A stretch of 64,000 nucleotides of DNA from the IMG/VR virus record IMGVR_UViG_3300027672_001796. The stretch is one strand, 5' to 3'. The translations under genes were made by a program, and so were the position numbers. Under the pieces are notes generated by a model. It made no database searches and had not been told where the DNA came from. It saw nothing but the letters and a program-made list of their open reading frames with translations. This document shows positions 1-18,177 of the stretch, piece after piece (the stretch's first letter is position 1; each line of letters opens with the position of its first letter). Source of the stretch: a virus. Taxonomy: Duplodnaviria; Caudoviricetes.

Positions 1-597
1 CCAGTATATTTTTTCTACTGTGTCTAGGTACGGATCGAATGTTTCTAGGAAGTCTGTTGATCCTTTTTTGATTTGGTGTATAGCCTGCGTTGGAGTTTTA
101 TTAAACTGACTGTCCGTTGCATCGTTAAACCATAAGCTACTTAAATCAGGCCCACAGGATCTACATCTCATGTTACAGATATTACTAAAGCGAATATCCA
201 TGTATGTCATGTTAACACCGTCGACGGTACCGTCTTCATGTGTAGCCTTTACTGCTTCGAACTGGGCAGTACCATGCTCGTTATTCTCCAGCATAATGTA
301 CTCGCCATTGCTTCGCTGTCTTAAAGTTTGATGTCCGTGTGACTCTTGTTCGTAACATCTATTACAGTTAGAAAGTTTTTTATGGTTAAGCATGTCTAGC
401 CTAAACTTCTTCAGCTCATCACCGTTCCACACTTCTTCTAGAGTTTGTTCATTTAAGTTGCCAACAGGAGAATGCAGTTCACTTAAACAGCAAGTAAACA
501 CTCTACCATCGGGCCAAGGGTGCATGTGTATCCACGGTATCACGCAGAATGCTTCGCTTTCCATTAGTTCTTTTTTTGATAGATCTTTAAAACTCAT
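1..597 (-). CDS. N-terminal twitch-domain radical SAM protein, paralogue 0 (partial, runs off the window start)
   Basis: Not in the ORF track; translated by hand from the ATG at 597: MSFKDLSKKELMESEAFCVIPWIHMHPWPDGRVFTCC...NCNRCY...DIRFSNICNMRCRSCGP (CxxxCxxC). ATGA overlap with the desaturase stop codon. Confidence 0.9.
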   Translation of the reverse strand, partial: MSFKDLSKKELMESEAFCVIPWIHMHPWPDGRVFTCCLSELHSPVGNLNEQTLEEVWNGDELKKFRLDMLNHKKLSNCNRCYEQESHGHQTLRQRSNGEYIMLENNEHGTAQFEAVKATHEDGTVDGVNMTYMDIRFSNICNMRCRSCGPDLSSLWFNDATDSQFNKTPTQAIHQIKKGSTDFLETFDPYLDTVEKIYW

Positions 598-1370
598 TTG
601 CTTATTACCTTTATTATCAATCCGTTTAAATCCCACTCCCACCATTTGTTTCCTTGGTATGCTAGACTAGGATCATTGTGATGATTATTATGCCAACCCT
701 CACCGAACGTTATTATATTTACCAGCCAATGGTTAGTACTCTTGTCGTTAGTGTCATATGTTCTGTAACCCATCCATGTAAGCCCTTTACCATGACCCCA
801 TGTATTAAACGCACCGGTGGCCCAAACACATAAACTTACAGGAGCCAAGTACGCATACAGCACTAGCAATGGATCTATTAATGCTAAAACTACAATGTAT
901 ACTAGTATGTATCCAAAAAAGTAGTTATGCGAGTGTAATACTGCGTTGTTCTTTAGCCAATCTTTAGCAAGTCGTATGTTATATTTTTCATCCTTTAACC
1001 CTAATGTCCAGCTCTTCCACAAGCTCATGTGGTGCGGACTATGAGGATCACTGTCGCTATCAGATGCTTTGTGGTGTTCTCTATGCTTAACTATGTAACC
1101 AAACACACTACTTAAACTTGCTAAGGTGCCTGTTACGTTAAGTACATTTTCCCAAAACTTGTTAGTCTTGAAACTCCTATGTGCAAAGTATCTGTGTTGC
1201 CCAACGAATATTCCTATGCTACTAAACCAAAAGTAAACAATAGCAGTTACCCACAACAGTTCACTAGGACCTATAAGCAGTACTGCTAGTAGTCCGGCAT
1301 GAGCCAGCCATCTAAGACTGTCTCCTTTAGTTTTAGTATACGCTAGTATGTTCACTTTGCTCCACTGCAT
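594..1370 (-). CDS. Membrane fatty-acid (acyl-CoA delta-9-like) desaturase
   Basis: Three histidine boxes (HRYFAH, HREHH, HNNHH), hydrophobic segments and a GEGWHNNHH motif. Confidence 0.9.
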   Translation of the reverse strand: MQWSKVNILAYTKTKGDSLRWLAHAGLLAVLLIGPSELLWVTAIVYFWFSSIGIFVGQHRYFAHRSFKTNKFWENVLNVTGTLASLSSVFGYIVKHREHHKASDSDSDPHSPHHMSLWKSWTLGLKDEKYNIRLAKDWLKNNAVLHSHNYFFGYILVYIVVLALIDPLLVLYAYLAPVSLCVWATGAFNTWGHGKGLTWMGYRTYDTNDKSTNHWLVNIITFGEGWHNNHHNDPSLAYQGNKWWEWDLNGLIIKVISK

Positions 1371-2577
1371 CTACTAACTTAGTAAATGTATTTCTCCATT
1401 CGCTGTTATCGTTGTTGTCTAGTAAATCGTTAAAGCGACAAAACTGTTCCCACTTTAATTCATTCCACTCATCGTTATTAAACATGCTAAGTAAAGTGCC
1501 TAATTTATGATCATTGCCCAACGCTTGTCTAAATTCTGTATGTATCAACTCTCTTGCCTTAACAGGTATAACTGCAGGACTTAGGTAATCAGGATCATAC
1601 ACGAAGTTCATATCAACTTCTATCCCAATGCTATCGGCCCATTTAAAAAATTCAGGCAATGTAGCATAATTGTAAGCACTCACTGTTTGTGTAATTCTTA
1701 ATGTTAATGTATCTTGTAATGGTAATAATGTATTAATAGTTTTTAATACGGCTTCCCATTTTGTATTAGTTCTTATAAAAGCATTCCTATCTTCTAAGTC
1801 ATCAATACTTAAACATATTCTTGCTTCTTTAAAGTGGGGCCATAGTTCTAATGCAATTGGAGGTAGCATAGTACAGTTAATGTTATACCACAGTATAATA
1901 TCTTTTGCTCTGCCACTAGCTACTAATTTCTTTAAGTAAGTCCAATGCTGTTTAATCAATGTAGGCTCTCCACCATTGATATAAATTACTTCTAAGTTTG
2001 GAGCGGAGTTATATAGGTCGTCATAAAAATTATCATCCTCTGCCCATTTAAAATCTTCAGGAAAGTTAAGTCCTAAGTAACCTTTATTTACGAAGTCAGC
2101 TTTCTCCACAATGTCTTTATAGTCTTCAAGCCACTTTGAACTACTTGCCGGATTACATGTACGGCACCGAACGTTACATACATTGCCAAGACGAAGCTCG
2201 ACAAAGCGGAGATCCATATCAATATCGCCACCTTCCCTAGTAACCCCACTCGCCCAATCAAGGGTGTTCTGTGGAAAAACAGATTGTTCATGTATTCGTT
2301 TGGACTTGATTCCGTTATCTTCTTCATTGTAACACCTCATGCAAGCCTTTGGCTTTTCATCGTTGAGCATCTGTAGGCGAACTTCTTTATAGTAGTCGCT
2401 GTTCATCTGCTCTTCGATATTGTTTTTGTTTAAGTCTAGGAACTCATCGTAATCATCCTTATAATTTCTAGCTCTGTTTTTGCCATCAGTGTGGTCACTG
2501 ATGCAACACAATGTGATACCACCGTGAGGATGGGTGGCTAAGTGTTGCCAAGGTAGAGGACAATATGTAGAACTCAA
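1333..2577 (-). CDS. N-terminal twitch-domain radical SAM protein, paralogue 1
   Basis: YCPLPW..LCCI..ACMRCY at the N-terminus, CNVRCRTC core and GGEP motif. Confidence 0.92.
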   Translation of the reverse strand: MSSTYCPLPWQHLATHPHGGITLCCISDHTDGKNRARNYKDDYDEFLDLNKNNIEEQMNSDYYKEVRLQMLNDEKPKACMRCYNEEDNGIKSKRIHEQSVFPQNTLDWASGVTREGGDIDMDLRFVELRLGNVCNVRCRTCNPASSSKWLEDYKDIVEKADFVNKGYLGLNFPEDFKWAEDDNFYDDLYNSAPNLEVIYINGGEPTLIKQHWTYLKKLVASGRAKDIILWYNINCTMLPPIALELWPHFKEARICLSIDDLEDRNAFIRTNTKWEAVLKTINTLLPLQDTLTLRITQTVSAYNYATLPEFFKWADSIGIEVDMNFVYDPDYLSPAVIPVKARELIHTEFRQALGNDHKLGTLLSMFNNDEWNELKWEQFCRFNDLLDNNDNSEWRNTFTKLVDAVEQSEHTSVY

Positions 2578-3938
2578 TTTATCAACTCCCTGGTGCTATG
2601 CTGTTTGTAACCATTTGTCAACACTTCCTCATATTCTTTCGTGTAATCGAAGTCTTGTTTTATCAACTCGTGTAACTCGGGAAAGACTTCTGTAAAGTTC
2701 TCTTCTCGATAATGGTCTCCTCCTGCTATTTGTGATTTAAATATTTTCCATTTGTTTTCTATACTTCGTTGGTCAAACATTAATAGTTTATCCTCGGAAA
2801 CTTTTGCTCGTAGTTTTTCATCTACGCTGGCACCATTCTCATATAACGGTGAGTTAAAGTATTTTAGTAATGCTACTACTTCACTCTCATAGTCACCTGA
2901 CCATGTGTGCTCTTGTAATTGTTGTGTGATTATTTTCTTAGCAAACGCTGGTAGTACATTACATGTAAGCCACTTAGGATAATGTGCAATGTTATTCCAT
3001 ATTTTAAATGTAGGATAGTGTTTGTGGAAGTAATCGTGGAACTCAGGCAAGTACATTATATTTAATGCTGTAACAGTATGTGTTATTTGCATGTGTACTG
3101 GATAGTCGCCTGTGTGTAGTTCGTAAAAATAATCTAAGTTCTGTTTGACCTCGTCCCACTTACCAGGGTGCCTTAAGAATTCAAATCTGTCTCCGATGCC
3201 GTCTATACTAATACTAAACGATAACTCTTTAAAGTTACTTGCCATACGTTGCAAGAACACAGGGTCTGCTATTGTGCCGTTAGTACTTAACGTCATGCTA
3301 ATGTTTTGTGAATAGTTCTCATTAATAAGTTTGTCAACAAACTTCTTGAACTCTTTCATATAGAAAGGTTCGCCACCCATAATCTCTAATCGTCTTATGC
3401 CAGGTAGCCACTCATCCATTGTAGTCCAAAACTTACTGTTCTCCATATCGTTCATGGGAACCTTCGCACTAGTTTCCCAATACGGTATGTGTCTCTCTTT
3501 AGCTTCTGCTAACCACTTACTACTGTAGTTTGCATTACAACTTCTACATGCTAAGTTACAAGTGTTATCAAATATTAATTGCATGTCCATTACTGCTGTA
3601 GGTTTAGCAGTCCATTCGAATGTTTCCATCCAGTTAGGGCCATACCAGTTATCGTAGTAGTCATTGTATTGTTGGCGTTTACTGTATTTGCCATTGTCTT
3701 CATCGATCCAGCATGTTTCACAGTTAGCTGGCTTACCGCCATCGAGGATCTCATTTCTTATACGTTGATGGTTATCACTAGTAAATATATCTTGTACAGC
3801 ATCATCGCCTAAGGTGTAGCTTGTACCATGGTGGTCCTGTAGTCTATCTTTTGCGATACAACATGTGCGGATACTTCCACCTGGCTCGTTGCTCAAGTGT
3901 GTCCATAGTAATGCACAATATTTTTTATCTTCGCTCAT
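2574..3938 (-). CDS. N-terminal twitch-domain radical SAM protein, paralogue 2
   Basis: YCALLW..TCCI..NCETCW, CNLACRSC and MGGEP. Confidence 0.92.
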   Translation of the reverse strand: MSEDKKYCALLWTHLSNEPGGSIRTCCIAKDRLQDHHGTSYTLGDDAVQDIFTSDNHQRIRNEILDGGKPANCETCWIDEDNGKYSKRQQYNDYYDNWYGPNWMETFEWTAKPTAVMDMQLIFDNTCNLACRSCNANYSSKWLAEAKERHIPYWETSAKVPMNDMENSKFWTTMDEWLPGIRRLEIMGGEPFYMKEFKKFVDKLINENYSQNISMTLSTNGTIADPVFLQRMASNFKELSFSISIDGIGDRFEFLRHPGKWDEVKQNLDYFYELHTGDYPVHMQITHTVTALNIMYLPEFHDYFHKHYPTFKIWNNIAHYPKWLTCNVLPAFAKKIITQQLQEHTWSGDYESEVVALLKYFNSPLYENGASVDEKLRAKVSEDKLLMFDQRSIENKWKIFKSQIAGGDHYREENFTEVFPELHELIKQDFDYTKEYEEVLTNGYKQHSTRELIN

Positions 3939-4812
3939 ACTGGTCCTGTATTAATTTGCTGATACATAGTCTAGTAGTATCATTGCCTCTGTTGTAGTCA
4001 CTATACTTATCGTCATTGCTCGTAGCAAACAATATGCAGTTAGTGGCATCAACACCAAGGTCCTTGCACACTTGTTGCTGTACGGCCCTGTACTTTGTTA
4101 CTATGAAGTCTGCAGAGTATTGCTCTATGCAATGCAGTCCTACTAATGCTCCAAAGTTATTTACAATGCCATGCTGGTTAGCAAATGTTACAGCATCGTC
4201 TACTTCTGTTCTTTGGTATCTTACTCCGCACCTACTACCTATAATAGGAAACGTTTTCCCTAAACTGAATGTTACTTCTTCTATACACTTATAATTTAAA
4301 TCAATTTCCATACCGTAGCACATACCAAAGTATGCACAATCAATTAGTACTGGAACATTTAATGCTGAACATTTCTCTAGTAACTTAATGTGCTGTGGGT
4401 GTGCTGTACCAAAGTCACTAAACGGTATGCTTATAATAACCGCATCGCCTACAGTAATTTCATTTGCATCATATATCCACTTCCAATTGTTACCCATAAC
4501 ATTGCTGGCAACCTTATGCATCATGAAGTCACCTTTTAAGAATCTAAAGTTCTTATCATGGTGTCTCATCATAAACATTTGGAATGCTTCACTAGTACCA
4601 TGTGTCATAGTACCATGCTGAAAGTTTTCTAAACCAGTGAGTGTATTTTCTGTACTGGACCAAATCCAGTTTCGCATTTTATCTACGAACTGTTTCTCTA
4701 ATCCAGTTACACCGTCAGCAACAAAAAAGTTATTCCATACTTCTGGTTGAGTAACATACTGTTGTAAACTAGCAGTTATCTCTATGTCTTGTATAGCGTA
4801 AGCACCCTTCAT
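3925..4812 (-). CDS. PLP-dependent fold-type I enzyme (aminotransferase-like), compact
   Basis: LIDCAY (PLP-binding Asp), FSLGKTF (Schiff-base Lys) and a GSRCG Arg motif. Confidence 0.7.
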   Translation of the reverse strand: MKGAYAIQDIEITASLQQYVTQPEVWNNFFVADGVTGLEKQFVDKMRNWIWSSTENTLTGLENFQHGTMTHGTSEAFQMFMMRHHDKNFRFLKGDFMMHKVASNVMGNNWKWIYDANEITVGDAVIISIPFSDFGTAHPQHIKLLEKCSALNVPVLIDCAYFGMCYGMEIDLNYKCIEEVTFSLGKTFPIIGSRCGVRYQRTEVDDAVTFANQHGIVNNFGALVGLHCIEQYSADFIVTKYRAVQQQVCKDLGVDATNCILFATSNDDKYSDYNRGNDTTRLCISKLIQDQYERR

Positions 4813-5597
4813 TCGTCACCGTCCAATTTGCCATGCCCGTATTCATTTTCTAAATGGTATGGCTGATCAGCATCTTTATCATACCAGTATAAACTTTTGT
4901 GTGGAGGATCTCTCCAATCATGTTTACTATCTGCTATGTAGTAAAATAATCTAAAGCCTACTCTAAACTTGTCATCGGGACAAGCAATTGGATTAGGATG
5001 TCCATGGAAGCCACGTTTGTGATATTTCCAAATGACAACGTTACCCATCTCTGGTAGATAACTTACTACCTTGCCTTGCTTATCGAAATCCCAAAACTGT
5101 AAGTCGCCGTTCCATTCTTCTTCCCACTCAGGAGTAAAATATAATATTAAACTTAATGCTCTGTGTGTTTGACATTCTTCATTCCAGTTAAAGTCGGAAT
5201 GTATTTTAAGACTATCTCCCTTATAACTTTTCATATACCCTGCACCAACTAAATACGGATCGGGTAGTAGGTGAGGAACGTCACATACTTTTCGTAGCCA
5301 TTCTAAAAACTCTGGACTATGTAAAGCACTAACAAGTTGTCTAGCCACCGGTGCATGTTTTAAATTCTTACACTCTTCCATATAGCTATCGGCTCGGGTA
5401 AACGTAGTCCAATACTTTTCAGGTATCGTAATACTCTCTTCATACAATGCGTTTGGGAGACCGTCAGGAATAAAATCTTTTAAATGCAAAGTAGGATAAG
5501 GAGGCGTATAACGATATTGTTCGTTAAGATTACGCATTTCCTTTTCGCTACCCCACTTGTCGTGTATGTAGTTTATTATCTTCTGGTCCCAGTTCAT
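4809..5597 (-). CDS. 2OG-Fe(II) oxygenase
   Basis: HSD...H facial triad (LKIHSDFN, GFHGHP), WxxxWxGxL motif and a distal Arg. Confidence 0.88.
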   Translation of the reverse strand: MNWDQKIINYIHDKWGSEKEMRNLNEQYRYTPPYPTLHLKDFIPDGLPNALYEESITIPEKYWTTFTRADSYMEECKNLKHAPVARQLVSALHSPEFLEWLRKVCDVPHLLPDPYLVGAGYMKSYKGDSLKIHSDFNWNEECQTHRALSLILYFTPEWEEEWNGDLQFWDFDKQGKVVSYLPEMGNVVIWKYHKRGFHGHPNPIACPDDKFRVGFRLFYYIADSKHDWRDPPHKSLYWYDKDADQPYHLENEYGHGKLDGDE

Positions 5598-6889
5598 TAT
5601 TTCTTTACCCTAGTGTTACCATAGTGAACAACTTCAACGCCCTCTATGTCTGGAGTTTTTCTCCACGGATCAACAACTATACTACCTAGTGCAAAACTAA
5701 GTTCAGTGCCATTACCCGTTCTAACACTTAATGCTTCATCGCATGATGAAGGAGAGTGCTGTTCGTACCACCCTGGTACTGTATCTAATTGTTCGCCGTA
5801 TGTAACTTGTGGATTATGTGCTAGTAAATATACTGCTGGATTGTTTAATACATACTCCGGTGGCATGTCACCAGTTTGTTCGTCATAGTAATACAATGGA
5901 TGCCCTTGGGCAAGAACATAGTGACCTACCAGCATACTACTAGAACCACTTTCATATGGCACTAATGGTTTGTATGCTTTACCTACAATAACTATAGGTA
6001 TGTCATTTGCTAAGTCTAGCAATCTCTTTGCCATGTTCTCTGCCTGCTTTTCTCTCGAAAGCATTACAGCATCAAACAAGTCGTAGCCTAAGTCTAGTTC
6101 TTCTGCCATCCAACGTAGTGCGATATTATCTCTTGGGTGACAAGCACCACCATCGCCCATGCCTGGCTTCATGTACCCAGGTCCCATAATACGCCTTCCA
6201 GAATTTGCCAAAGCATCACACACAACTTCTGCGTTAATGTTGCCTGACGCTTCTGCTACGTCTTGTATCATGTTAACTAAACTAACTTTTGCTGATATAA
6301 ATGTATTGTAAAATACTTTAATGCATTCACATTCATCCCATGTACCTATAACATACTTGGGATCGTTCTGCATTATTGTTTTATAAAAGTCTACAAGTTC
6401 CTTTGCGTCACCTGTTTCATTTCCATCTTCTGTTCCAATCATTACCATTTCTGGATTAACCATATCCCACTTCACAGTACCCATAGCAATTAAGTATGGG
6501 TTGTATATAAAGCGAGTGTTGGGTAATAGTGGTACAAGTTCTTTTCGAACTGTGCCGGGTAAGACTGTGCTTATAAGAACAACCAGTTGTTCCTTTGTTG
6601 CGACAGCATTTACTTGAGAAAGAACTTTCTTTACTATTGTGTAATCAAAGTCTTTGTTTGGTAAATGGCTGGTAGGTGCTTTGCCGTCATACTGTGGATC
6701 ATGCGGAGTAGGTGCGGCTACAAAGATAATATCTTTGCCAACTACAGCTTCTTCCATCGTGTTAACCATTGCAAAGTTTTCAGGCTTTACATCGTTAATA
6801 TCGTATCCAACAGTATAATGAACTTCAGCGACCATTTCGGCGCAGGCTTGCCCTAGCTTGCCTACCCCAATAAATCCGATTGAGGCCAT
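5597..6889 (-). CDS. UDP-glucose/GDP-mannose 6-dehydrogenase family protein
   Basis: GxGxxG (GVGKLG), STVLPGT, IKVFYNTF..KVSLVN and catalytic-Cys motif GDGGACHPRD. Confidence 0.9.
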   Translation of the reverse strand: MASIGFIGVGKLGQACAEMVAEVHYTVGYDINDVKPENFAMVNTMEEAVVGKDIIFVAAPTPHDPQYDGKAPTSHLPNKDFDYTIVKKVLSQVNAVATKEQLVVLISTVLPGTVRKELVPLLPNTRFIYNPYLIAMGTVKWDMVNPEMVMIGTEDGNETGDAKELVDFYKTIMQNDPKYVIGTWDECECIKVFYNTFISAKVSLVNMIQDVAEASGNINAEVVCDALANSGRRIMGPGYMKPGMGDGGACHPRDNIALRWMAEELDLGYDLFDAVMLSREKQAENMAKRLLDLANDIPIVIVGKAYKPLVPYESGSSSMLVGHYVLAQGHPLYYYDEQTGDMPPEYVLNNPAVYLLAHNPQVTYGEQLDTVPGWYEQHSPSSCDEALSVRTGNGTELSFALGSIVVDPWRKTPDIEGVEVVHYGNTRVKK

Positions 6890-6948: not shown

Positions 6949-8280
6949 TCAGCTATTATAGAATTCTTGCATTTGTTTATACCGGTCAGTATCTTCGACT
7001 ACCCATAAATAAGGATCTGTGTTAACTAATTCAAGGAATCGTGCCTTGTTACGTTTTAATTTTGCTTGTACATCTACACTATGATATAGCTGATGTGTTT
7101 GTTCTATTGGTATTTGGGCTAATGCAGTAATGTTTTCTTTTACCATTCTCATGCGTTCGCCTGGGTGAGCTGTACTATCATATGTTTCATCAAAGAACTC
7201 AGGGAATGTTTCAAAGCCTAAATCTTTAAATGCTTGGAGACACCCTGCATACCCAACAGATAATAACGGTAACTCGTAGTAAGCACTTTTTAAACTCTTC
7301 TCAGATACCCAGCCTGATAATGGCATAGTCATTGCCTCGAGTTCCCATTGGTCTATTGAAGTTTCAAATATAGTTGTGTTATTGTTTGGAGGGAATATTG
7401 AAAACCCAAACCTGAACTCTTGTGCCCAGTGTGTTTCTGTTGCTATGTAAGTATAGCAATTGTCTACTACATCAGTGTGTATAATATCTTGCCACTCACC
7501 AATAGTAGTCATATGATGGTCACCGTCTGCTAGAATACATAAGTCTAAATCATTTGGTCTAAGATAACTTAGATGTGTATGTGGCAGAAGTTCTTTGCGA
7601 TATTTTATAAATTTTACTATCTCAGTCCTATGTTCTTTCTCATAGTTATTTAAACATACGAATATTTTTTCTCTTCTAACTTCACCGCCAGGACTAACAT
7701 ACAGTTTTAGTTTTGCTTCAATATGTCTGCCTACAATTCTATTAGGATACACAGAGTAGTATTGGACATCTGCCGCCGGGAATAGTTTCTTATGTATTTT
7801 TACTTCAGTAGTATTACCTAACCAGAAGTGCAATCGGTCACCGTAAATTTTCTTTAATTGTCGCTTGATTACTTTAGTTCGGTCATGAAGTAATTCCGGC
7901 ATATCTGCAGAACCCTGGGTTTCGAATACTCTGCTACTATACATATCCCAACCACTTGAAAACAATAAATGTATATTTTTATATTCCTCTATTGTTTCAA
8001 CAACTTTCATTAACAGCGGACCGTCGTCTAAGTACGAGTTTACACTTAATCCTAATTCTAGTATGTGTGTTATACCACCGTCACGTTTAGCACTAGCTAT
8101 AACATCGTAAATATTATCGTAATGCACTACCAAAGGAGCTTGTCCAGGCTGTGTGCTTATAAGGTCAGGCATGCTATTAGACCTGCATGGTATGCCGAGT
8201 GGTCTGTCATTAGCAAACGTATCGAATGCATCTTCAGGAGAGAAGAGACATCGTACTATGCATAGCAATTTATTACTCAT
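6949..8280 (-). CDS. Putative glycosyltransferase (GT-B/GT10-like), paralogue A
   Basis: CLNNYEKEHR, IATET...VSEKSLK and GFETF..FDETYD motifs shared with 9083..10324; the E-T...(T/S)EK pattern resembles the GT10 donor-binding motif. Confidence 0.5.
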   Translation of the reverse strand: MSNKLLCIVRCLFSPEDAFDTFANDRPLGIPCRSNSMPDLISTQPGQAPLVVHYDNIYDVIASAKRDGGITHILELGLSVNSYLDDGPLLMKVVETIEEYKNIHLLFSSGWDMYSSRVFETQGSADMPELLHDRTKVIKRQLKKIYGDRLHFWLGNTTEVKIHKKLFPAADVQYYSVYPNRIVGRHIEAKLKLYVSPGGEVRREKIFVCLNNYEKEHRTEIVKFIKYRKELLPHTHLSYLRPNDLDLCILADGDHHMTTIGEWQDIIHTDVVDNCYTYIATETHWAQEFRFGFSIFPPNNNTTIFETSIDQWELEAMTMPLSGWVSEKSLKSAYYELPLLSVGYAGCLQAFKDLGFETFPEFFDETYDSTAHPGERMRMVKENITALAQIPIEQTHQLYHSVDVQAKLKRNKARFLELVNTDPYLWVVEDTDRYKQMQEFYNS

Positions 8281-9086
8281 AATGGTTTCCTCCCAATGAG
8301 GCCACGGACCGAGGTTACAAGATCGATAATATCGTTAACTTCGCTCATACTAGTAAGTTTCATCTCTATGATCATTTTCCAAACATTTGCAATATCGGTA
8401 AACCTGTTTCTGTACCAAGCATAATCAGAACCAAGTAAATTCATATATGCCAGTGTAACTAGCCGCACTTCATCTGTGAGTGATTGATTTATTCTAAGCA
8501 TTGAATACATAAACGTATCATTTGCTTTATATGGTATGGGGTTCGCTCGGAGATCGCTGGCAGTCTTATCACTAATGTTTGGAATGATGCCGATAGAGTC
8601 GGGACTCATTGTGTTATGAATCATGACTATTGAATTAGCAACTACCCTTTCATTATTGTCACCGTGCTCTGCAAAACAATTTAAAATTGATATGCACCAT
8701 CTAGGTGTTATGTTATAAATTATATCGTTCCAGTCCGTTGAAATTAGTTGTCTTAGTACATCAATATCCCATTCCTCTCTCTTGGGGTCGAAATCTAATC
8801 CATTACTATTTCTGGACAAAATAATACATGCTTTAGTACGCACAATTGAGTTAGGGTGATTAATTGCTACATAACTTAATATTTCGATTCGGGTAGAATT
8901 CCAGTCTTTAAATCTTGGATTGCTATAATAGTTATAAAAGTGCTTAGGCAATACTAGTGAATTGCGTGAGGATCCATGCTCGGCGGTTTCATCATATGCG
9001 TCTTTGAACTGCGTGGCGATGCTAGTATGTAAAATTTCATCCCAATTGGTTAAGTCCGGCTTGTTTACATGATTGATGGCGGTCAT
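8277..9086 (-). CDS. Hypothetical protein (269 aa)
   Basis: Long ORF with 4-nt overlaps to both neighbours in the operon; no motif recognised. Confidence 0.75.
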   Translation of the reverse strand: MTAINHVNKPDLTNWDEILHTSIATQFKDAYDETAEHGSSRNSLVLPKHFYNYYSNPRFKDWNSTRIEILSYVAINHPNSIVRTKACIILSRNSNGLDFDPKREEWDIDVLRQLISTDWNDIIYNITPRWCISILNCFAEHGDNNERVVANSIVMIHNTMSPDSIGIIPNISDKTASDLRANPIPYKANDTFMYSMLRINQSLTDEVRLVTLAYMNLLGSDYAWYRNRFTDIANVWKMIIEMKLTSMSEVNDIIDLVTSVRGLIGRKPL

Positions 9087-10326: not shown

Positions 10327-11745
10327 CTATCTCGAGTTATGTTTCGGATCAGGGCGTGTGTACCAATTGTATAATTCCTCGTCTGCTTTATAAATTTCTT
10401 CTATTGTTAATGCTTCGCCTTCAGCGCCATCGTTTCTAATAGTAGCAATAGTTTGTTGCCATTGTCTGCCATTAAAGAACTGATCCTCATGTGTATCTGG
10501 AAACTGTTCGGCGAACGTAGGAGTGTTTAGTATTGTTTCTAGTTGAGTTATTACTGTGCTTTGTTTCTCAGTTACAATAGGACGCAAATCATCTAACAAA
10601 CTGTTTACTATTCTATCTAGTATATGTCTGGGCCAACTCATAAATGTAAATACTACGTCAGGATGGAATGCAAACATATTCTTAGTTTCAATTTTAACAT
10701 TAAGGTCTAGTGAGTACTGTACGAAGTCACGTAAGCCAAATAGTCCAGGACCTGTTAGTGTTAAGTCCATAAGCATTTTACTATCGCCACCAGGACATGC
10801 AACACCTTCTCTAAAGTTCTTATCCCACTCTTCCCATACTAAACCTGTGCGTATGAACTCGCCTATCTTTCCTATGCCGTCGATACTAGCACACATAGTC
10901 CAGTCCTTTGCTTGTGGCAACCAGTCGTACAAGTAGTGCTTACCAAAACGTACTCTACTTAGGTTACTGTTATAACGTAAGTGTACTTTGCGTAAGTTAT
11001 CATCTTCGGATAGTCTAGCCATGCTCTTCCAATGTATATCATACATAAGTGGCTCACCGCCAACCCAGTATATTTCTTCCACCGTGCCTGACTTAATTGC
11101 TTCCCAAAATTCTTCTTCTACTACTTCCTTTTGAAACTTTTGTATAATCTTTTTATTTTCTGGAACCATGAACGGTTGGCTCTCTGGAGTCCAGTGGTCG
11201 TTCTGTCTCTTCTCTGTTTCCCATGCTGAACTAAGTTGCTCACCGCACATACGACATTTGAAGTTACATAAGTTACTAACCCTGTAATCAAAACTAATAG
11301 GATTCATTGTAGTAAAGCCATCGTCGTCTGTACTATCGAAGCACTCGTCTATTTTATCTTCAAATAAGAAACCAGTAAACCATTGACGGTATGTACTTTG
11401 ACTTAGTACACTATCGTTGCACACATTACATTGTGGTATCTCTTCACCTGCCATTAACTTCTTACGGATGTCCATCATATATGGACTGTTCCAATGTTCT
11501 TTTAAACTAATAGGCTTATAGTCATCGATGGTCCCGCTCTCTTTAAACTTGCCAGTACTTTCATCATTACTTGCATCGATGTATTGCTTTTGGAATTGGT
11601 GTTCTTCTCTACTAGCACAACACATACGTCTCTCTGACTGCGGACTAATATAAGTATGTGTCCATGGAGCAGTACAGAAAACTTTGTTCTCTGAGTCTTC
11701 GACCATACTGCCATGAGCCCATTTAGGCTTAATTCTATTACTCAT
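10327..11745 (-). CDS. N-terminal twitch-domain radical SAM protein, paralogue 3
   Basis: FCTAPW..MCCA..QCNVC, CNFKCRMC and VGGEP. Confidence 0.92.
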   Translation of the reverse strand: MSNRIKPKWAHGSMVEDSENKVFCTAPWTHTYISPQSERRMCCASREEHQFQKQYIDASNDESTGKFKESGTIDDYKPISLKEHWNSPYMMDIRKKLMAGEEIPQCNVCNDSVLSQSTYRQWFTGFLFEDKIDECFDSTDDDGFTTMNPISFDYRVSNLCNFKCRMCGEQLSSAWETEKRQNDHWTPESQPFMVPENKKIIQKFQKEVVEEEFWEAIKSGTVEEIYWVGGEPLMYDIHWKSMARLSEDDNLRKVHLRYNSNLSRVRFGKHYLYDWLPQAKDWTMCASIDGIGKIGEFIRTGLVWEEWDKNFREGVACPGGDSKMLMDLTLTGPGLFGLRDFVQYSLDLNVKIETKNMFAFHPDVVFTFMSWPRHILDRIVNSLLDDLRPIVTEKQSTVITQLETILNTPTFAEQFPDTHEDQFFNGRQWQQTIATIRNDGAEGEALTIEEIYKADEELYNWYTRPDPKHNSR

Positions 11746-12730
11746 CGTCTTCCCATACAGCGATATCGCTAATGTAAGGACATGCTTCTAATTTGGTTAT
11801 AATACTTTCGAACGTTTCATTTTGTAACGCTCCTAGTTTAGCTCTGCCTATGGCATGTTTAGGCTCTGTGTGGTCAATGCCATATTTAGAAACTTCGTTG
11901 GCTTCACACCATTGATGCAATCTTCTATTTAAATGTGTTTCAACCTCAGCATCAAATACTTGAAACGAGGCTTGATTCAAACCAATACATGCACTACCGG
12001 ATATTAATGTTTGAGGTTTAACCTCTTTACGTTTTATTAATTCTAAATCTTTTGATGCATAAGCATGACCTAAATCTTTGCCTACGGTAAAGAAGTCTAA
12101 AAACAAATCACCTGTATAGTATTGACTTTGGAATTGTGCGTAGTCGTCATCTGTTAATTCTATATATTCTGCTTCTGCATTAGGACTAAAATGTCTTGCT
12201 ACTATAAAGTATTGCTTCTCATCTAATTCTTCTACTGCAAAGAAACGAGATATGTTTGCTTCTATTTCGTGTACCGTTTTATTTAAACGTTCCAATATCT
12301 CTACTTCCGGATGAGATTCTTCTGTGTAAACAAAGCCTGAAACTTCTGTTAACTCTACTAATTGTTTTTCAAAAATAAAATGTACTTCGTTTAATTTGTC
12401 GTGCATTTCTTTTGTAGTATCTGTTATAGATAACTTTAGATCCGGATCGGCTCCTTGCGAATCTATATCAGTATTTAAACTATTAATTAGTAGTTGCATG
12501 TTTACACTTTGATTAGCGTCATACAAATTCCAATGTAGCCATCTATATTCATCAGCTATTGCTGTTTTTGTAATGTTATAAAACTGATTACCAATATGCG
12601 TGTCTGCTAGTTTCCAAACAAGTTCTTGGTTGCCACCTTTAAAACTACTCTTGCCTATTACATTAGTGCCACCACTATCCATTACACCTACGGGTGTTGG
12701 ACTTAAACTCAGTTTGTAGTACTTACTCAC
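11738..12730 (-). CDS. Hypothetical protein (330 aa) between radical SAM genes
   Basis: Long ORF overlapping both radical SAM neighbours; LNEVHFIFE and LNKTVHEIE helical His/Glu motifs. Confidence 0.75.
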   Translation of the reverse strand: MSKYYKLSLSPTPVGVMDSGGTNVIGKSSFKGGNQELVWKLADTHIGNQFYNITKTAIADEYRWLHWNLYDANQSVNMQLLINSLNTDIDSQGADPDLKLSITDTTKEMHDKLNEVHFIFEKQLVELTEVSGFVYTEESHPEVEILERLNKTVHEIEANISRFFAVEELDEKQYFIVARHFSPNAEAEYIELTDDDYAQFQSQYYTGDLFLDFFTVGKDLGHAYASKDLELIKRKEVKPQTLISGSACIGLNQASFQVFDAEVETHLNRRLHQWCEANEVSKYGIDHTEPKHAIGRAKLGALQNETFESIITKLEACPYISDIAVWEDDE

Positions 12731-14403
12731 TCGTCTACTGCTCCGCCAAGTCCATCAGTGTCTGTGTCCCAACCAATGCTACTACCAGCACGTTTTTTAA
12801 TATTAGGATTAACTCCTTCTATTTCATTTTCGTATTTGGTATCATCATAGTCATCGTCGCTCTCACCTGTTTGGCGTCCACGTACTTTCATTTCTACAAC
12901 TTTAACTTCGCCGTCCTCTGTAACAATACGTTTGGCATACAATGTATTAGTTACACCTACACTATCTGGTGCTTGTATGTCGTGGTCATCGCTAATGTCT
13001 AATACATCAATGCTGTCGTACCAGTCTACTAGCCTAGGGAATGTTGTTCTAAAATTATGTCCACGTCTCGAATCGTACTGCTCGTAAAACACTTTGAAGT
13101 CATGGTCTAACAAGTATTGCTCTGCTGTATTCCTGTGTGGAGTTTTAACAACATCTAAATATTCTATTAGTCTGCTTATTTGATCTTGTTCCCATGCTTG
13201 GAGTAATTCTACGCCATGCATATCTCTCTCGCCTTTATTTCGAGTATCATCTAACCACTCGCTAAGTTCATCATGATACATTTTACGCAAGTCATCTGGC
13301 AATGTTAATGGACTTTGGAAACTAGGGAAACGTAATATGTTTACACTAATACCCGGAACGTGATGTCCGTATTTTCTCTTCATAGACAATGTCCAATCTA
13401 AGAATTGACAAATAGTATCTAAGCATAATGCATTGACAGTCATCATCATGTGTACGCCTTCGTATCTTGCCTCTGTGGCAAAACGTTCAAACTGTGCTGT
13501 CCATATTTCCCAATCTAATCCGTCTCTGATATATTCTGCTTGGGCACCAAAGGCTTCACAACTGGTATACACATGGAAGTGGTCAATGTGTTGTGTAGCA
13601 TCAATAAACTTGTTTAGTAACCCAGGCTTAGCCATTAAGTTACTGTTAATAGCCAAACGCATCTTCTTAGCATTGGGCTCATCTGTTTCTTTAAACCAAT
13701 CGAACAGTTTGTAGATACTAGGAGTCATTAATGGCTCACCGCCAGTAACACGAATCTCTTCTAGCTCTTTACTTAGCTCGGGCCACCATCTCCAAAATGC
13801 ATCTACATAAGGATTGGCTGTACCGGCATCGTACGGTTCGGCATACGGAGCATCATCGATAAAGTGACCTCTTGCATCTGACTTAATACCTTGATACCCA
13901 CCATTGGTTCTAATGTCTTTAACCCATGTACTACTAAACGCAGGATTGCAATAACTACATGCTAACTGGCATGTTCTATCAAATGCAACCTCACAGGTTT
14001 TTAAATTAACATCAGCGTTAGGATCTAACGTTGCAATGTGTTGTAAGTCTCTATCTTCATATATAACTGTTTTATATACTCTGTCGGACACAGCTTCATT
14101 GCCGTCCGAGTCTTGCCCCATGTCTTCAATCTTCCAACAGTACTCACACTCTTTGGGCCGTGTGCCTTCCTGCATCATTTGACGCATCTTCTTTTTGTGT
14201 CTGCTGTTGTGAATAGCACTAGGGTTTTCTTTAATGTCTTCTAAATCTATTTGGTGTGCTGGGGGATGATGACAACTAGTTGTTCCACCATGGCCCAACC
14301 ATATAGTAGCATTGTACCATTTGGCGCCGCAAAAGGAATCTGATACTGGATCTATCATCCTTGCTTTAAATTCTCTGTGAGTCTCGTCTACCTTCCTAAC
14401 CAT
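12727..14403 (-). CDS. N-terminal twitch-domain radical SAM protein, paralogue 4 (acidic C-terminal extension)
   Basis: FCGAKW..SCHH..ECEYCW, CQLACSYC and TGGEP. Confidence 0.92.
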   Translation of the reverse strand: MVRKVDETHREFKARMIDPVSDSFCGAKWYNATIWLGHGGTTSCHHPPAHQIDLEDIKENPSAIHNSRHKKKMRQMMQEGTRPKECEYCWKIEDMGQDSDGNEAVSDRVYKTVIYEDRDLQHIATLDPNADVNLKTCEVAFDRTCQLACSYCNPAFSSTWVKDIRTNGGYQGIKSDARGHFIDDAPYAEPYDAGTANPYVDAFWRWWPELSKELEEIRVTGGEPLMTPSIYKLFDWFKETDEPNAKKMRLAINSNLMAKPGLLNKFIDATQHIDHFHVYTSCEAFGAQAEYIRDGLDWEIWTAQFERFATEARYEGVHMMMTVNALCLDTICQFLDWTLSMKRKYGHHVPGISVNILRFPSFQSPLTLPDDLRKMYHDELSEWLDDTRNKGERDMHGVELLQAWEQDQISRLIEYLDVVKTPHRNTAEQYLLDHDFKVFYEQYDSRRGHNFRTTFPRLVDWYDSIDVLDISDDHDIQAPDSVGVTNTLYAKRIVTEDGEVKVVEMKVRGRQTGESDDDYDDTKYENEIEGVNPNIKKRAGSSIGWDTDTDGLGGAVDE

Positions 14404-14998
14404 TATAATTTCCTACGTCGAAGCTCAAGCTTCTTACCTGTACCTGATTATTTAGTCCTATTATCCATTCTAACATCTCCGCTACACTATCAGCAGTCAT
14501 CATATAATCTTCTGCAAAATCTTTAAGCCATGCTGTGCTATCAGTGTCAACCATGCCTGGCTTAATGTTCGTTACTCTGCACTTACCTTTCTGGAACTGA
14601 TTACTTAGTTGTAAACTTGCCCAGTCGAGTCTTGCTTTGTCACTAACATACGGAGTCCAGTCTTTGTTGTAACCCATCTGTGCAAAGTTATGTATACTGT
14701 CGCTACTTGTTGCACCCATATTAATTATTTGCCTAGGCTTGTTTTCCCATGCTTCATAGAACAGGTATAGTAGTCTGACTTGGCTACCGGGTGCGTATGC
14801 GTTGTTAACGAATATATCAGCTTTCCATTCTAATGCTTCTTTAACAATACGTTTGCAAGTACTCTCTTTCATAATATTGTAGCCATTGCTTTTACTAAAG
14901 CCCATGACTTCAATACCCTGAGCTTCTAGCCTTTCAACTAGATACTTTCCGATGCCTCTTGTGTGTCCTGTTATTGCAACTCTTTTTGTGTGTGCCAT
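14396..14998 (-). CDS. Short-chain dehydrogenase/reductase (SDR)
   Basis: TGHTRGIG (TGxxxGIG), NNA, YVSDK (YxxxK) and PGMVDT. Confidence 0.88.
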   Translation of the reverse strand: MAHTKRVAITGHTRGIGKYLVERLEAQGIEVMGFSKSNGYNIMKESTCKRIVKEALEWKADIFVNNAYAPGSQVRLLYLFYEAWENKPRQIINMGATSSDSIHNFAQMGYNKDWTPYVSDKARLDWASLQLSNQFQKGKCRVTNIKPGMVDTDSTAWLKDFAEDYMMTADSVAEMLEWIIGLNNQVQVRSLSFDVGNYNG

Positions 14999-15003
14999 AC
15001 TAC

Positions 15004-15010: not shown

Positions 15011-15020
15011 CTGCTTTTTT

Positions 15021-16121
15021 CTAGTTATTAAACAAATCTACGCTTTCCCAAGGTAAATCATCTTTACCGAAGTGCCCGTAGTTAGTTGTCCTTGTTAAGT
15101 CTAGATTAAACAAATCAAAACGTTTAATAATTCCTAGTGGTGTTAAGTCAACATTATCACGGAAGTAGTCTTCAAACTCCTTTCTAACAATGCCATCTGC
15201 GTACACATATATACTAGTAGGTTCTTTAACACCGATAGCATAACTTAGTTGCACTACACAGTTTTTAGCCTTGCCACTAGCAACAACATTCTTTGCTAAG
15301 TAACGTGCCATGTAAGCACCGCTTCTGTCTACTTTAGTACAATCCTTGCCACTAAATGCTCCGCCACCATGTGGGGCATAGCCACCGTATGTGTCTACAA
15401 TAATCTTACGTCCTGTAAGTCCTGTGTCTCCATCTGGCCCACCTATAACAAATTTACCTGTAGGGTTAATATGCCATACTGTTTTTAGTACGTCTACTTT
15501 ATCTTTGATAACCGGCAATATAATGCCTAGTACACGTTCTCTTACTTCGTCTATGCTTAGTTCGTCGCTATGTTGAGTACTACATACAACTGTCTTAATG
15601 TATGAAGGCTCTCCTAGTTTTTTGTATGCAAATGTTACTTGACTCTTTGCATCCGGTCCTAACCAATCTGCACCGTTGCGTCTTGCTTCTTCTAGTGCTT
15701 GTAGTATTTTATGACTGTAATGTATTGTGCTAGGCATAAAGTTATCTGTTTCGTCACATGCGTAACCAAACATAATACCTTGATCTCCTGCTCCAAAGTC
15801 GTCAGTGCCTAAGGCAATGTCTGAACTTTGTCCATGCAGTTCGTTGTATACCACTAATCTTTCCCAATGGAATCCGTCTTGTTCGTAACCAATCTCTTTT
15901 ACTACGTTGCGTATTAGTGATTCAACTTCCTCTTTACTAATGAGTTTGTCTGACTTATATTCGCCTGCTACTGTAACCATGTTAGTTGTAACTAATGTTT
16001 CAACTGCCGCTCTATTATTAATGTTACCATCGATAATAAATGTTGCTACTGTATCAGAGATTAAGTCGGCTATTTTATCCGGATGTCCGTTACTCACGCT
16101 TTCGCTTGTGAATTCGTACAT
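15021..16121 (-). CDS. metK: S-adenosylmethionine synthetase
   Basis: FTSESVSNGHPDK, GAGDQG, GPDGDTGLTGRKIIVDTYGG, GGGAFSGKD and KVDRS signatures. Confidence 0.97.
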   Translation of the reverse strand: MYEFTSESVSNGHPDKIADLISDTVATFIIDGNINNRAAVETLVTTNMVTVAGEYKSDKLISKEEVESLIRNVVKEIGYEQDGFHWERLVVYNELHGQSSDIALGTDDFGAGDQGIMFGYACDETDNFMPSTIHYSHKILQALEEARRNGADWLGPDAKSQVTFAYKKLGEPSYIKTVVCSTQHSDELSIDEVRERVLGIILPVIKDKVDVLKTVWHINPTGKFVIGGPDGDTGLTGRKIIVDTYGGYAPHGGGAFSGKDCTKVDRSGAYMARYLAKNVVASGKAKNCVVQLSYAIGVKEPTSIYVYADGIVRKEFEDYFRDNVDLTPLGIIKRFDLFNLDLTRTTNYGHFGKDDLPWESVDLFNN

Positions 16122-16158
16122 AATCCTCTCCTGTTGTTTACTTCATATAGAAGTGTTC

Positions 16159-16194
16159 TATTTATATTATAACATGAATTGCTTAATAAATCAA
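16159..16194 (-). promoter_or_regulatory. Composite promoter for metK: sigma70 (TTGATT-17bp-TGnTATAAT) abutting late motif TATAAATA
   Basis: -35 at 16189-16194, -10 at 16166-16171, TATAAATA at 16159-16166. Confidence 0.7.
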
Positions 16195-16514
16195 GCAACA
16201 AATAATCCTTTCATGCTTTTACCTTTTGACATATCACCGTTGAATGTCATTTTGCCACCCATAACTAATTTAACTGGGTCAGCGCCTTTAGTAAACATCT
16301 CAATCATTGTATCTTTGCTAACAAATCCTACAGTGATGTCTGCTTTATCTAAATGCTCGTTACACAGAATACATTTCTTATCGTGTACACTAATAGAAAA
16401 CTTACCATTAGTTTCACTAATAACATTAACGTTAATATCAATATCAATGCCTTCTGATTTTTCTTTCTGAAATTTACCTTCTAAGTCTGTTTTAATTGTG
16501 CCAAAGTCTAACAT
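16191..16514 (-). CDS. SCP2 sterol/lipid-carrier domain protein (~107 aa)
   Basis: C-terminal DPVKLVMGGKMTFNGDMS matches the SCP2 pattern. Start moved from 16568 to 16514 because AAGGAGG precedes that ATG. Confidence 0.75.
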   Translation of the reverse strand: MLDFGTIKTDLEGKFQKEKSEGIDIDINVNVISETNGKFSISVHDKKCILCNEHLDKADITVGFVSKDTMIEMFTKGADPVKLVMGGKMTFNGDMSKGKSMKGLFVA

Positions 16515-16542
16515 ATTATCCTCCTTTTGGATATTAAGTTTT

Positions 16543-18177
16543 TCATAGCAATGCTTCTGCCTCTTCACATTGTTGCCAAAATTGATGCATCTCTGGAAAT
16601 GTTGCTAAGAAATTTGTGTCTCTTCTTGCGTCATGTTCGCTAAAGAATTTAAAAAAGTCTGCTCTGTCTCTTCTTAACTTATCACTATCGATGTCTTGTT
16701 TCATTATATCTAAGTTACGTTTTGCTTTAGCAATTTCAAAATCTTTAAAACCTCTGTAGTCTACATAGTCTTCAGTTGCTTTGTTATCTTCCATAAATTG
16801 AATTGCTTCCTGCATGTAGTCACAATACTCGCTAGGTAGTACATGTATACTTTGCCATGCTGGTGCTCTAAGCAATGGAATGTCAAACCATATACGTTGC
16901 TCCGGAACTTCCCAACCCATTGCAAACTGGTTCTCTTTACTCCACTTATCTCTAAGGTCTAATATTCCTTGTAGGAATTCTGTAAAACTTGTAACACTTA
17001 AACAGTTAAACGTGTTAATAAAATTAATACTAGTAAATCTAGTTTCGTCTAAAAACCTATGACAGTTATTCCACACAGTATCAAATACCATACCATTACG
17101 CATATACTCTGCTTGTTCGCCCCAACCATCTAAACTACAAAACACACTAAAGTTATGATATGCTTTGTCGTTGTATTCGTAAATATATGTGAAACTATTG
17201 TTATCCTGTTCTTCGCATTGTCCAACTTGCATAAACGTTTGCGGTATCTCTTCTCGTTCTATTACTGCTAAGTTGCTGTCGTGATAACGTTTTGCATCAG
17301 CGCCAATTATAGCATGATCCCATGTTTGCCAATCTGTGCCGTCTAGTGGATCTGCTACATATACTTCTGCACCATGTTGTACATTATCTAATCTCTTAAC
17401 TGAATCTAAAAACTTTACAAACAATGCATCGTTGGCAGGACACATGTTTGTTGTTATACTTAATTCTAAATCTTTATTTGGATTTGCTAATACATAATCT
17501 AATACTTTAAAAGTATTCTTATCCATTAATGGCTCACCACCAGTCATACGAAACACACGAAGTGTTTTATACATCTCGGGCCACCACTTCCAAAACGCTG
17601 TAACGTATGGATTAAGATCCTGTTTTACTTTTAATGGCATTAAGTTTTTTAGTGCAAGACTGTCAATATTATTATGTGGAGCAGTAGTTGGATATTCCCC
17701 AAACTCGTCTATCTCTTCTTGCCATGCTGTACTTAAATGTGGAGAACAATAACTGCACTTGAAGTTACATGCTTGATTAAAGTTTACTTCTACATAACGT
17801 GGATTGATGTTGCCACTAGCACCAGCATCTAAAATATCTTCTTTACTTTCTTGTGCCCAATACTCGCCACTGCGATATACTCGGTCACTTCTTGCACCCG
17901 TATCTTCTATGTCCCAACAATAACTACAGCCATCTGGTCTCTCGCCTTTAAGCATTTGTCTGCGTTGTTCTTTCTTTTCTTTTGTGTTATGTAGTGCTGT
18001 TGGATTATCTTTTAACTCATCTAACGGAATTGAATGTGTAGGCGGATGATAGCAACTGTGTGTTTGACCATTTGTTAAGTGCATAGATACCTGAGACCAT
18101 TTAGCATAACACATGCTAGGACTAATATTATCTAGTTGCTCTTTAGCCTTATCAGCGGCTTGGTCGTATATGCTCAT
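16543..18177 (-). CDS. N-terminal twitch-domain radical SAM protein, paralogue 5 (internal insertion)
   Basis: MCYAKW..SCYH..GCSYCW, CNFKCSYC and TGGEP. Confidence 0.92.
   Translation of the reverse strand: MSIYDQAADKAKEQLDNISPSMCYAKWSQVSMHLTNGQTHSCYHPPTHSIPLDELKDNPTALHNTKEKKEQRRQMLKGERPDGCSYCWDIEDTGARSDRVYRSGEYWAQESKEDILDAGASGNINPRYVEVNFNQACNFKCSYCSPHLSTAWQEEIDEFGEYPTTAPHNNIDSLALKNLMPLKVKQDLNPYVTAFWKWWPEMYKTLRVFRMTGGEPLMDKNTFKVLDYVLANPNKDLELSITTNMCPANDALFVKFLDSVKRLDNVQHGAEVYVADPLDGTDWQTWDHAIIGADAKRYHDSNLAVIEREEIPQTFMQVGQCEEQDNNSFTYIYEYNDKAYHNFSVFCSLDGWGEQAEYMRNGMVFDTVWNNCHRFLDETRFTSINFINTFNCLSVTSFTEFLQGILDLRDKWSKENQFAMGWEVPEQRIWFDIPLLRAPAWQSIHVLPSEYCDYMQEAIQFMEDNKATEDYVDYRGFKDFEIAKAKRNLDIMKQDIDSDKLRRDRADFFKFFSEHDARRDTNFLATFPEMHQFWQQCEEAEALL

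Follow-up and report, generated by a model that had tools for sequence, protein, structure and literature searches.

The large and mostly viral NCBIfam family NF033640 (N_Twi_rSAM, 'twitch domain-containing radical SAM protein') comprises radical S-adenosylmethionine (SAM) enzymes, and no member has a known reaction. A richness of marine T4-like phages in radical SAM genes has been on record since 2017, when the marine T4-like viral genome TARA_ERS488813_N000010 was reported to carry 12 of them (Nishimura et al. 2017, PMC5332604). Here we analyze a stretch of viral DNA of 64,000 nucleotides (IMG/VR record IMGVR_UViG_3300027672_001796, hereafter the window), which comes from an uncultured giant marine T4-like myophage and carries six radical SAM genes in its first part. 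To what is on record we add that such genes form eight ancient orthologous groups, that they are shared with predatory bacteria, that they recur in a sugar-gene context and that culturable test systems exist.

Six radical SAM genes with an N-terminal twitch domain

The six copies were named rSAM_A to rSAM_F in the direction of transcription, all being encoded on the minus strand (Table 1). The original prediction held that they are permuted radical SAM paralogues, with a cysteine-rich module placed before the catalytic core, and that they belong to a family with an N-terminal twitch domain. Both statements are borne out by the NF033640 profile, the order of the Pfam domains and the motifs of an alignment. 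All five complete open reading frames (ORFs) exceed the curated NF033640 cut-off of 170 bits; rSAM_F, which has been cut by the edge of the window, scores 169.8 bits over model positions 1-178. The scores of the six copies therefore range from 169.8 to 345 bits, against at most 37 bits for other families (best score versus cut-off, viperin 37/180, MoaA 33/284, QueE 21/260 and NrdG activase 18/131). The best viperin match to the window copies is to prokaryotic viperin (E 1.8e-9). The copies group apart from MoaA and from the activases, and none of them lacks the SAM-binding motifs, contrary to the two outcomes that had been named as grounds for abandoning the assignment.

Pfam places the SPASM domain (PF13186) at the N-terminus of four copies (residues 6-110; in rSAM_F, 2e-13 at residues 34-98) and the Radical_SAM domain from about residue 125. 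Canonical SPASM and twitch domains are reportedly C-terminal to the core. Here the auxiliary-cluster module is N-terminal in six of six copies, and no cysteine-rich C-terminal domain is present. The residues that are invariant in the alignment of the six copies are the four N-terminal cysteines (C...C...CxxC), the CX3CX2C motif and SxxW; 56 of 57 sequences from relatives have the four cysteines as well. The GGEP SAM-binding motif is found in all five complete window copies and in every full-length relative that was aligned. Judged by these intact motifs, none of the six copies appears to be inactive.

An insertion of ~85-100 amino acids within the radical SAM barrel of rSAM_A (about residues 265-350) is the reason why NF033640 matches this protein in two stretches. 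The insertion is also present in the relatives G001 and G004, and it is absent from the rSAM_A orthologues in G002, G003 and L018 (511 amino acids). The last ~95 amino acids of rSAM_B form an acidic low-complexity tail with a DDDYDD-type stretch; the protein has a constant length in its phage orthologues (553-558 amino acids), the orthologue of the Ralstonia phage RsoM2USA being shorter (~460 amino acids). The rSAM_F orthologue in G001 has 432 amino acids. Six is a lower bound for the number of copies, because the window begins inside rSAM_F and the closest near-complete relative has two further genes, G and H, beyond F. On the evidence of that relative, G and H very probably lie beyond the left edge of the window, and this phage probably has eight or nine copies in total.

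The copies fall into two motif subtypes, which had been taken to suggest different ligation of the auxiliary cluster. The motif types are exact, with CxxPW/CxLLW...CC...CxxC in C, D, E and F and CxAKW...SC[HY]HPP...CxYCW in A and B, and the signatures are kept in 56 of 57 sequences from relatives (18/18 of the A/B type and 38/39 others). They also mark deep clades: A and B form a clade of their own (100/100 support), and the stem branches of the subtypes measure 2.3-2.5 changes per site. However, four N-terminal cysteines are common to both subtypes. The first cysteine of the 'CC' pair is a serine in A and B, which keep H-P-P-x-H instead, while the second aligns in all sequences, and thus the same four candidate ligands are available in both subtypes. 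The single auxiliary cluster of BtrN is said to use such a four-cysteine pattern. A BtrN-like site would fit A and B as well as the other copies; different ligation is possible, in view of the additional cysteine in one subtype and the conserved histidine in the other, and is neither indicated nor required by the motifs.

We predicted the structure of rSAM_E with AlphaFold2 (pLDDT 94.7, pTM 0.90). Against the PDB only the generic core of the model aligns (~190-217 residues), with anSME, BlsE, SkfB, CteB and SuiB, then viperin and MoaA, tied at Z 11-13. The Foldseek TM scores against the PDB are 0.31-0.41, and no characterised enzyme is specifically close. In the AlphaFold DB, the clusters at TM 0.7-0.8 to rSAM_E are all unnamed members of the family.

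Ancient orthologous groups shared by phages and predatory bacteria

A maximum-likelihood tree of 57 sequences separates eight groups, A to H. The bacterial and other related loci were retrieved with an alignment of E-type homologues as the query, and sequences from Bdellovibrionota fall inside each of groups A, B, C and E. The window copies are ~40-57% identical to their Bdellovibrionota orthologues and 21-33% identical to one another; by group, the bacterial orthologues are 45-57% (B), 45-51% (C) and 35-43% (E) identical. The paralogues are ancient orthologous groups that have been inherited together and not recent duplicates.

IMG/VR contains 23 contigs related to the window, and relatives have about 9-12 family matches. 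In all 23, the A-B-C trio is preceded by an identical order of genes, encoding a tail-fibre-like protein of 721 amino acids followed by proteins of 348, 122, 299, 287, 205 and 331 amino acids, and rSAM_C was found in every one of the 23 loci that is long enough to show it. The relative G001 (340 kb, estimated to be 91% complete) has the island divided between its two ends, in the order A, B, C, [GT-like genes (GT, glycosyltransferase), dehydrogenase, methyltransferase-sized gene, 2-oxoglutarate (2OG) oxygenase, aminotransferase-like gene], D, D2, E, [desaturase-like gene, 397-amino-acid gene], F, G, H. The same groups are present in G002 and G003. Between the window and its closest relative, E is 86% and F 69% identical. 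In a more distant phage lineage that has only A, B and C (L017-L024, ~14,600-19,000, minus strand), we observed an opposite-strand protein of 1,000-1,284 amino acids with a domain 23-27% identical to the 331-amino-acid GT2-like protein of the window.

The bacterial copies are truly chromosomal. One pair is found in a complete 3.72-Mb Bacteriovoracaceae chromosome straight after tsaD, ksgA and smpB, and another Bdellovibrionota set is located near leuS and def. Five Bdellovibrionota genomes have roughly 5-20 copies each above the family cut-off, frequently as runs of two to six tandem genes. Bdellovibrionota also encode many further, diverged radical SAM proteins in which a SPASM-like module comes first and which fall short of the NF033640 cut-off (1,112,000-1,124,000 and 654,000-675,000 of the Bacteriovoracaceae chromosome G005; L035-L037). 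In G005 these genes are clustered, and six of the nine listed are within ~7 kb of a glycosyltransferase of family GT1 or GT2, unlike the strong copies.

When 1.84 billion representative proteins were searched with a profile, 7,832 clusters (50% identity) were detected at E<=1e-30; in the ESM Atlas, the clusters nearest to the family are 97-100% viral. The family had been described as known mainly from uncultured aquatic sequences. This is broadly right, with the addition of Bdellovibrionota chromosomes and of two cultured phages. The Ralstonia jumbo phage RsoM2USA has two copies, of which gp202 is 50% identical to B, and the KVP40-like Vibrio phage K566 has four diverged N-twitch-type copies clustered at 5678-12414 of its retrieved locus (L040). 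Three of the four K566 copies are annotated merely as 'radical SAM domain-containing protein'.

Many natural fusions carry two or three family domains in one chain. The fused metagenomic proteins (P0121-P0138, among them P0132 and P0136) have 770-1,413 amino acids and two or three complete N-twitch units, some with TPR-like linkers, and one has a 520-amino-acid N-terminal domain without a PDB match; PDB sequence searches with the N-terminal parts of the fused P0136 and P0145 returned nothing useful. An assembly line acting on one scaffold, as originally proposed, is plausible and has indirect support from the co-inherited ancient groups and from these fusions; for the putative scaffold, the gene context points to sugars.

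The phage and the neighbours of the radical SAM genes

The remainder of the window has genes for baseplate hub and wedge proteins of the T4 type, for tail-fibre-like proteins, for a gp55-type late sigma factor and for a gp46/47-type nuclease, and the G+C content of the window is 35-40%. Megablast of positions 1-18,900 matched no isolated phage, and none is near-identical. The first 24 kb of the window are a single densely packed block on the minus strand, in which neighbouring genes of the radical SAM island mostly overlap by 1-52 bases or lie 2-69 bases apart. The sole sizeable gap (22063-22620, 558 bases) contains three small minus-strand ORFs of 80, 55 and 45 amino acids, and a search of positions 1-28,000, this gap included, with Rfam gave no match. 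The island abuts tail-fibre and baseplate genes. Beyond it, a single ORF of 5,532 amino acids occupies positions 27851-44449 (minus strand), flanked by a gene for a 211-amino-acid protein and by a baseplate-wedge homologue (1,457 amino acids, PHROG 10646).

Table 1. Radical SAM genes and other features of the island, by position in the window
Feature	Position	Strand	Remarks
rSAM_F	1..645	-	N-twitch radical SAM; C-terminal half lost at window edge; start at 645 or 597 (alternative ATG, chosen in the original prediction)
Membrane fatty-acid-desaturase-family di-iron protein	594..1370	-	PF00487 4.6e-14; kept between E and F in relatives
rSAM_E	1333..2577	-	N-twitch radical SAM; NF033640 345 bits
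rSAM_D	2574..3938	-	N-twitch radical SAM; NF033640 309 bits; viperin model just 37 bits
Aminotransferase-like protein (weak assignment)	3925..4812	-	PF00155 1.9e-5, partial match; kept upstream of D in relatives
2OG-Fe(II) oxygenase	4809..5597	-	PF13640 2.5e-12
Nucleoside diphosphate (NDP)-sugar 6-dehydrogenase (UDP-glucose/GDP-mannose dehydrogenase family)	5597..6889	-	PF00984 and PF03721; UDP-glucose/GDP-mannose 6-dehydrogenases in PDB ~1e-19
GT-B-fold protein, probable glycosyltransferase, 443 amino acids	6949..8280	-	AlphaFold2 pLDDT 88.1, pTM 0.90
269-amino-acid protein	8277..9086	-	No Pfam, PHROG or NCBIfam match
GT-B-fold paralogue, 413 amino acids	9083..10324	-	27% identical to the 6949-8280 protein; invariant residues in common
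rSAM_C	10327..11745	-	Core trio member; NF033640 294 bits
330-amino-acid protein between B and C	11738..12730	-	No family match; presence varies among relatives
rSAM_B	12727..14403	-	Core trio, CxAKW/SCHHPP subtype; NF033640 318.6 bits; acidic C-terminal tail
Short-chain dehydrogenase/reductase (SDR)	14396..14998	-	PF00106 4.4e-9; overlaps rSAM_B start by 8 bases
S-adenosylmethionine synthetase (MetK)	15021..16121	-	All three MetK Pfam domains, 1e-27 to 1e-54
T4-type late-promoter motif TATAAATA	16159..16166	-	45 bases upstream of metK
SCP2-like small carrier protein	16191..16568	-	PF02036 1.1e-6
rSAM_A	16543..18177	-	Core trio, CxAKW/SCYHPP subtype; NF033640 327.3 bits in two stretches; barrel insertion
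215-amino-acid protein, Rossmann-like N-terminus (by eye from sequence)	18174..18821	-	No Pfam or PHROG match; overlaps rSAM_A start by 4 bases
GT2-like (GT-A) candidate glycosyltransferase, 331 amino acids	18827..19822	-	Nearest Atlas clusters named 'Glycosyltransferase 2-like', score 0.99; VDGDN motif
Two conserved genes (205 and 287 amino acids)	19848..21338	-	Syntenic in all relatives; only match PHROG 1903, function unknown
Phosphomannomutase (HAD type)	21331..22062	-	PF03332 1.2e-22
Conserved 299-amino-acid protein, DADY (DxD-like) motif	22621..23520	-	Syntenic in all relatives

Many of the neighbours resemble enzymes of sugar metabolism (Table 1). The NDP-sugar 6-dehydrogenase is 78-86% conserved in every relative carrying D-H, and the GT2-like protein is the most conserved neighbour of the trio (73-93% identical across relatives). 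The aminotransferase-like gene and the beginning of rSAM_D share 14 bases; a PDB sequence search with its product returned nothing useful, nor did one with a 361-amino-acid gene product of K566. Seven island proteins have no match in Pfam, PHROG or NCBIfam.

The exact motif TATAAATA has two matches in the window, compared with 9.2 expected from shuffles (at least two in all 100 shuffles), and this scarcity suggests that the motif is avoided outside promoters. The related ATAAATA lies 12-48 bases upstream of four island genes, those ending at 24979, 23869, 19822 and 6889. From these predicted promoter motifs, the island would be expressed late.

A possible role in the radical tailoring of sugars

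The association of the arrays with sugar genes extends from the window to at least six independent contigs. One contig with at least six radical SAM genes also encodes a carbamoyltransferase, an APS-kinase-like protein, DegT and an NDP-sugar epimerase/dehydratase, and another with seven encodes a sugar-1-phosphate nucleotidyltransferase and a carbamoyltransferase. In a metagenome-assembled genome (MAG) from NCBI, a triple-fused A/B-type protein is encoded beside GT1, GT2, DegT, PMT_2 and E1 dehydrogenase subunits. A polysaccharide-type region of a Bacteriovoracaceae chromosome contains a GDP-mannose dehydratase/epimerase, a carbamoyltransferase, GT1, GT2, SIS, a cytidylyltransferase and an ABC-2 transporter. 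Elsewhere, a six-gene array has an NDP-sugar epimerase immediately upstream, an E-type copy is fused to a Stf0-like carbohydrate sulfotransferase domain, and the four radical SAM genes of K566 are interleaved with a weakly GT8-like gene. The weak similarities of the family to outside enzymes are to viperin, MoaA, BlsE, DesII and BtrN, which have nucleotide-linked or sugar substrates.

We therefore favour a function in the radical tailoring of nucleotide-sugars or glycans by enzymes made late, a proposal whose chances we judge to be evenly balanced. Each enzyme would reductively cleave SAM at the CX3CX2C [4Fe-4S] cluster, and the 5'-deoxyadenosyl radical would remove hydrogen from a particular carbon of a nucleotide-activated or already attached sugar, with the N-terminal four-cysteine twitch cluster handling the electron as in BtrN. 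The outcome could be an oxidation, a dehydration/deoxygenation, an epimerisation or a decarboxylation, as known for BtrN, AprD4, DesII and BlsE. The SDR, the aminotransferase-like protein, the 2OG oxygenase, the NDP-sugar 6-dehydrogenase and the phosphomannomutase may supply the sugar and finish the intermediates, and the phage MetK would restore the SAM consumed. The GT-B-fold and GT2-like proteins would then pass the products to an acceptor, either the virion proteins encoded alongside or a polymer of the host surface; given the position of the island and its probable timing, virion proteins would be the most straightforward assumption.

A wider version of this proposal is tentative, and we would sooner doubt it than accept it. 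It describes an undescribed multi-enzyme system for radical glycan editing, in which about eight ancient N-twitch paralogues, inherited as a set, sometimes fused and common to giant marine phages and predatory Bdellovibrionota, would each carry out their own kind of radical reaction at a sugar carbon that is not activated, yielding rare sugars on virions or cell surfaces.

Several observations weigh against a sugar substrate or a glycan-directed role, and the main one concerns the bacterial copies. GT1 or GT2 genes were detected within 10 kb of 3 of ~33 strong loci in five Bdellovibrionota genomes, no excess over the 12% of positions in the one complete chromosome (P=0.77), although this test is weakened by short MAG contigs and by the use of only two GT families; the lack of proximity would fit a substrate that is present in every cell. 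Some arrays stand alone among housekeeping genes (TsaD, KsgA, SmpB, LeuRS, deformylase), and the shared gene order of T4-like phages may stem from their general collinearity and not from functional coupling. The glycosyltransferase assignments of the 331- and 299-amino-acid neighbours have no backing at the level of sequence. Foldseek matched the model of the 443-amino-acid protein to GtfA, TarM, SdgB and PimB' with a probability of 0.99-1.0 at low TM scores (0.28-0.39), the GT2-like protein has no sequence match in the PDB or Pfam, and the label GT8-like that had been given to the 299-amino-acid protein could not be confirmed with Pfam, NCBIfam or the PDB. The promoter motifs are consensus matches only. 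The nearest solved structures are tied, over the core only, between peptide-modifying enzymes (anSME, SkfB, CteB, SuiB) and enzymes acting on small molecules (BlsE, viperin, MoaA). Finally, we found no paper on NF033640 or on an N-terminal twitch/SPASM family in the literature, and no member is known to have been assayed.

Because the SPASM/twitch branch mostly matures peptides, the main rival is the modification of a protein or peptide, in which the enzymes would install cross-links or epimerised or oxidised residues in virion proteins (the tail fibres or the 5,532-amino-acid protein) or in an unrecognised precursor. The family does belong to this branch, and anSME, SkfB, CteB, SuiB, ChlB and EpeE are among its best structural matches (Z 10-13), but these are limited to the generic core. 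The position of the island next to tail-fibre and baseplate genes and its late-promoter-like motifs would suit such maturases, as would the many bacterial arrays without partner enzymes, expected if the substrate protein is encoded elsewhere, and one array that adjoins a gene of the Asp/Arg hydroxylase family. However, the recurrence of sugar-nucleotide enzymes beside arrays in unrelated contigs argues otherwise, and no PqqD/RRE-type leader-recognition domain was detected by Pfam or NCBIfam in the six window proteins. No obvious precursor gene was seen either, the small ORFs at 22122-22631 not being Cys/Ser-rich repeats, although precursors may lie elsewhere or have been missed. Overall we regard this explanation as unlikely.

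The modification of lipids appears very unlikely. In this view the radical SAM enzymes would have the SCP2 carrier and the desaturase-family membrane protein as partners in acting on host membrane lipids or lipid-linked glycans, and the conservation of the desaturase-family gene between E and F and the position of the SCP2-like gene next to A are in keeping with this; both genes are, however, absent from the A-B-C-only lineage and from the bacterial arrays. GDGT-MAS and GMGT synthase are among the distant structural matches of the family but match no better than the cores of other radical SAM enzymes, and a PagP-annotated gene ~5.5 kb beyond the K566 radical SAM cluster has to be set against sugar enzymes as the most recurrent neighbours.

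Least probable of all is a modification of free nucleoside triphosphates (viperin-like) or a hypermodification of phage DNA involving the glycosyltransferase-like genes: radical SAM enzymes and glycosyltransferases do occur in known phage DNA hypermodification pathways, T4 beta-glucosyltransferase is found at rank 49 among the GT-B matches and the best non-family matches are prokaryotic viperin, MoaA and QueE, but these are weak, with scores far under the cut-offs, a function coupled to replication is hard to square with the late-promoter-like motifs and with structural genes as neighbours, and no gene of the thymidylate-synthase/dCMP-hydroxymethylase family (PF00303) was found in the 91%-complete G001 or in G002, so that these phages lack the hydroxymethyl-pyrimidine pathway by which DNA is usually glycosylated and we down-weight this explanation.

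If the radical tailoring of sugars is correct, a set of radical reactions would be added to carbohydrate biochemistry, and NF033640, with its ~8,000 sequence clusters, would count as a new and large class of radical enzymes that act on carbohydrates. It would also follow that marine phages make complex glycans, which would bear on how hosts are recognised, on resistance to grazing and on the stability of the virion. In abundant giant marine phages, arrays of as many as ten copies fill several per cent of the coding capacity and are accompanied by a phage SAM synthetase, and they therefore represent a real cost to the phage. An ancient set of paralogues common to phages and predatory bacteria is in itself an unexplained evolutionary link. 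Since K566 and RsoM2USA are cultured carriers, the question lends itself to laboratory testing, and K566 is practical for knock-outs.

Comparison with known systems

The closest described entity is NF033640 itself, which matches the window proteins from end to end, with the N-terminal cysteine-rich module followed by the CX3CX2C core. The model names the architecture alone, however, and gives no reaction, substrate or structure. BtrN, the 2-deoxy-scyllo-inosamine dehydrogenase of butirosin biosynthesis and the archetypal twitch enzyme, shares the C...C...CxxC four-cysteine pattern, which in BtrN binds its one auxiliary [4Fe-4S] cluster, and it acts on a sugar-like substrate. The N-terminal module of the family profile aligns weakly with the BtrN twitch region (chain residues 196-258, E 0.01-0.03). 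The twitch domain is C-terminal in BtrN and N-terminal in the window proteins, and overall identity is negligible.

The best core alignments are those with the peptide-modifying enzymes anSME, SkfB, CteB and SuiB (Z 11.8-12.9, ~206-217 residues, rmsd 3.5-4.8), at an identity of 12-15%. In all four the auxiliary domain follows the core; anSME, CteB and SuiB also carry two additional clusters. Among the enzymes that act on sugars, BlsE (Z 12.3) is tied with the best and DesII reaches Z 11.2, neither having a specific sequence relationship to the window family, and AprD4 was seen in no search. AprD4 and BtrN work with reductase or transaminase partners. The pairing of radical SAM genes with reductase and aminotransferase-like genes in the island recalls the logic of AprD4/AprD3 and of BtrN with its aminotransferase.

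Among viral genomes, a described counterpart is TARA_ERS488813_N000010, which is also marine, T4-like and rich in radical SAM genes. These were discussed under phage Fe-S metabolism, and the report gives a gene count alone (PMC5332604), without family, orthologous groups, context or function.

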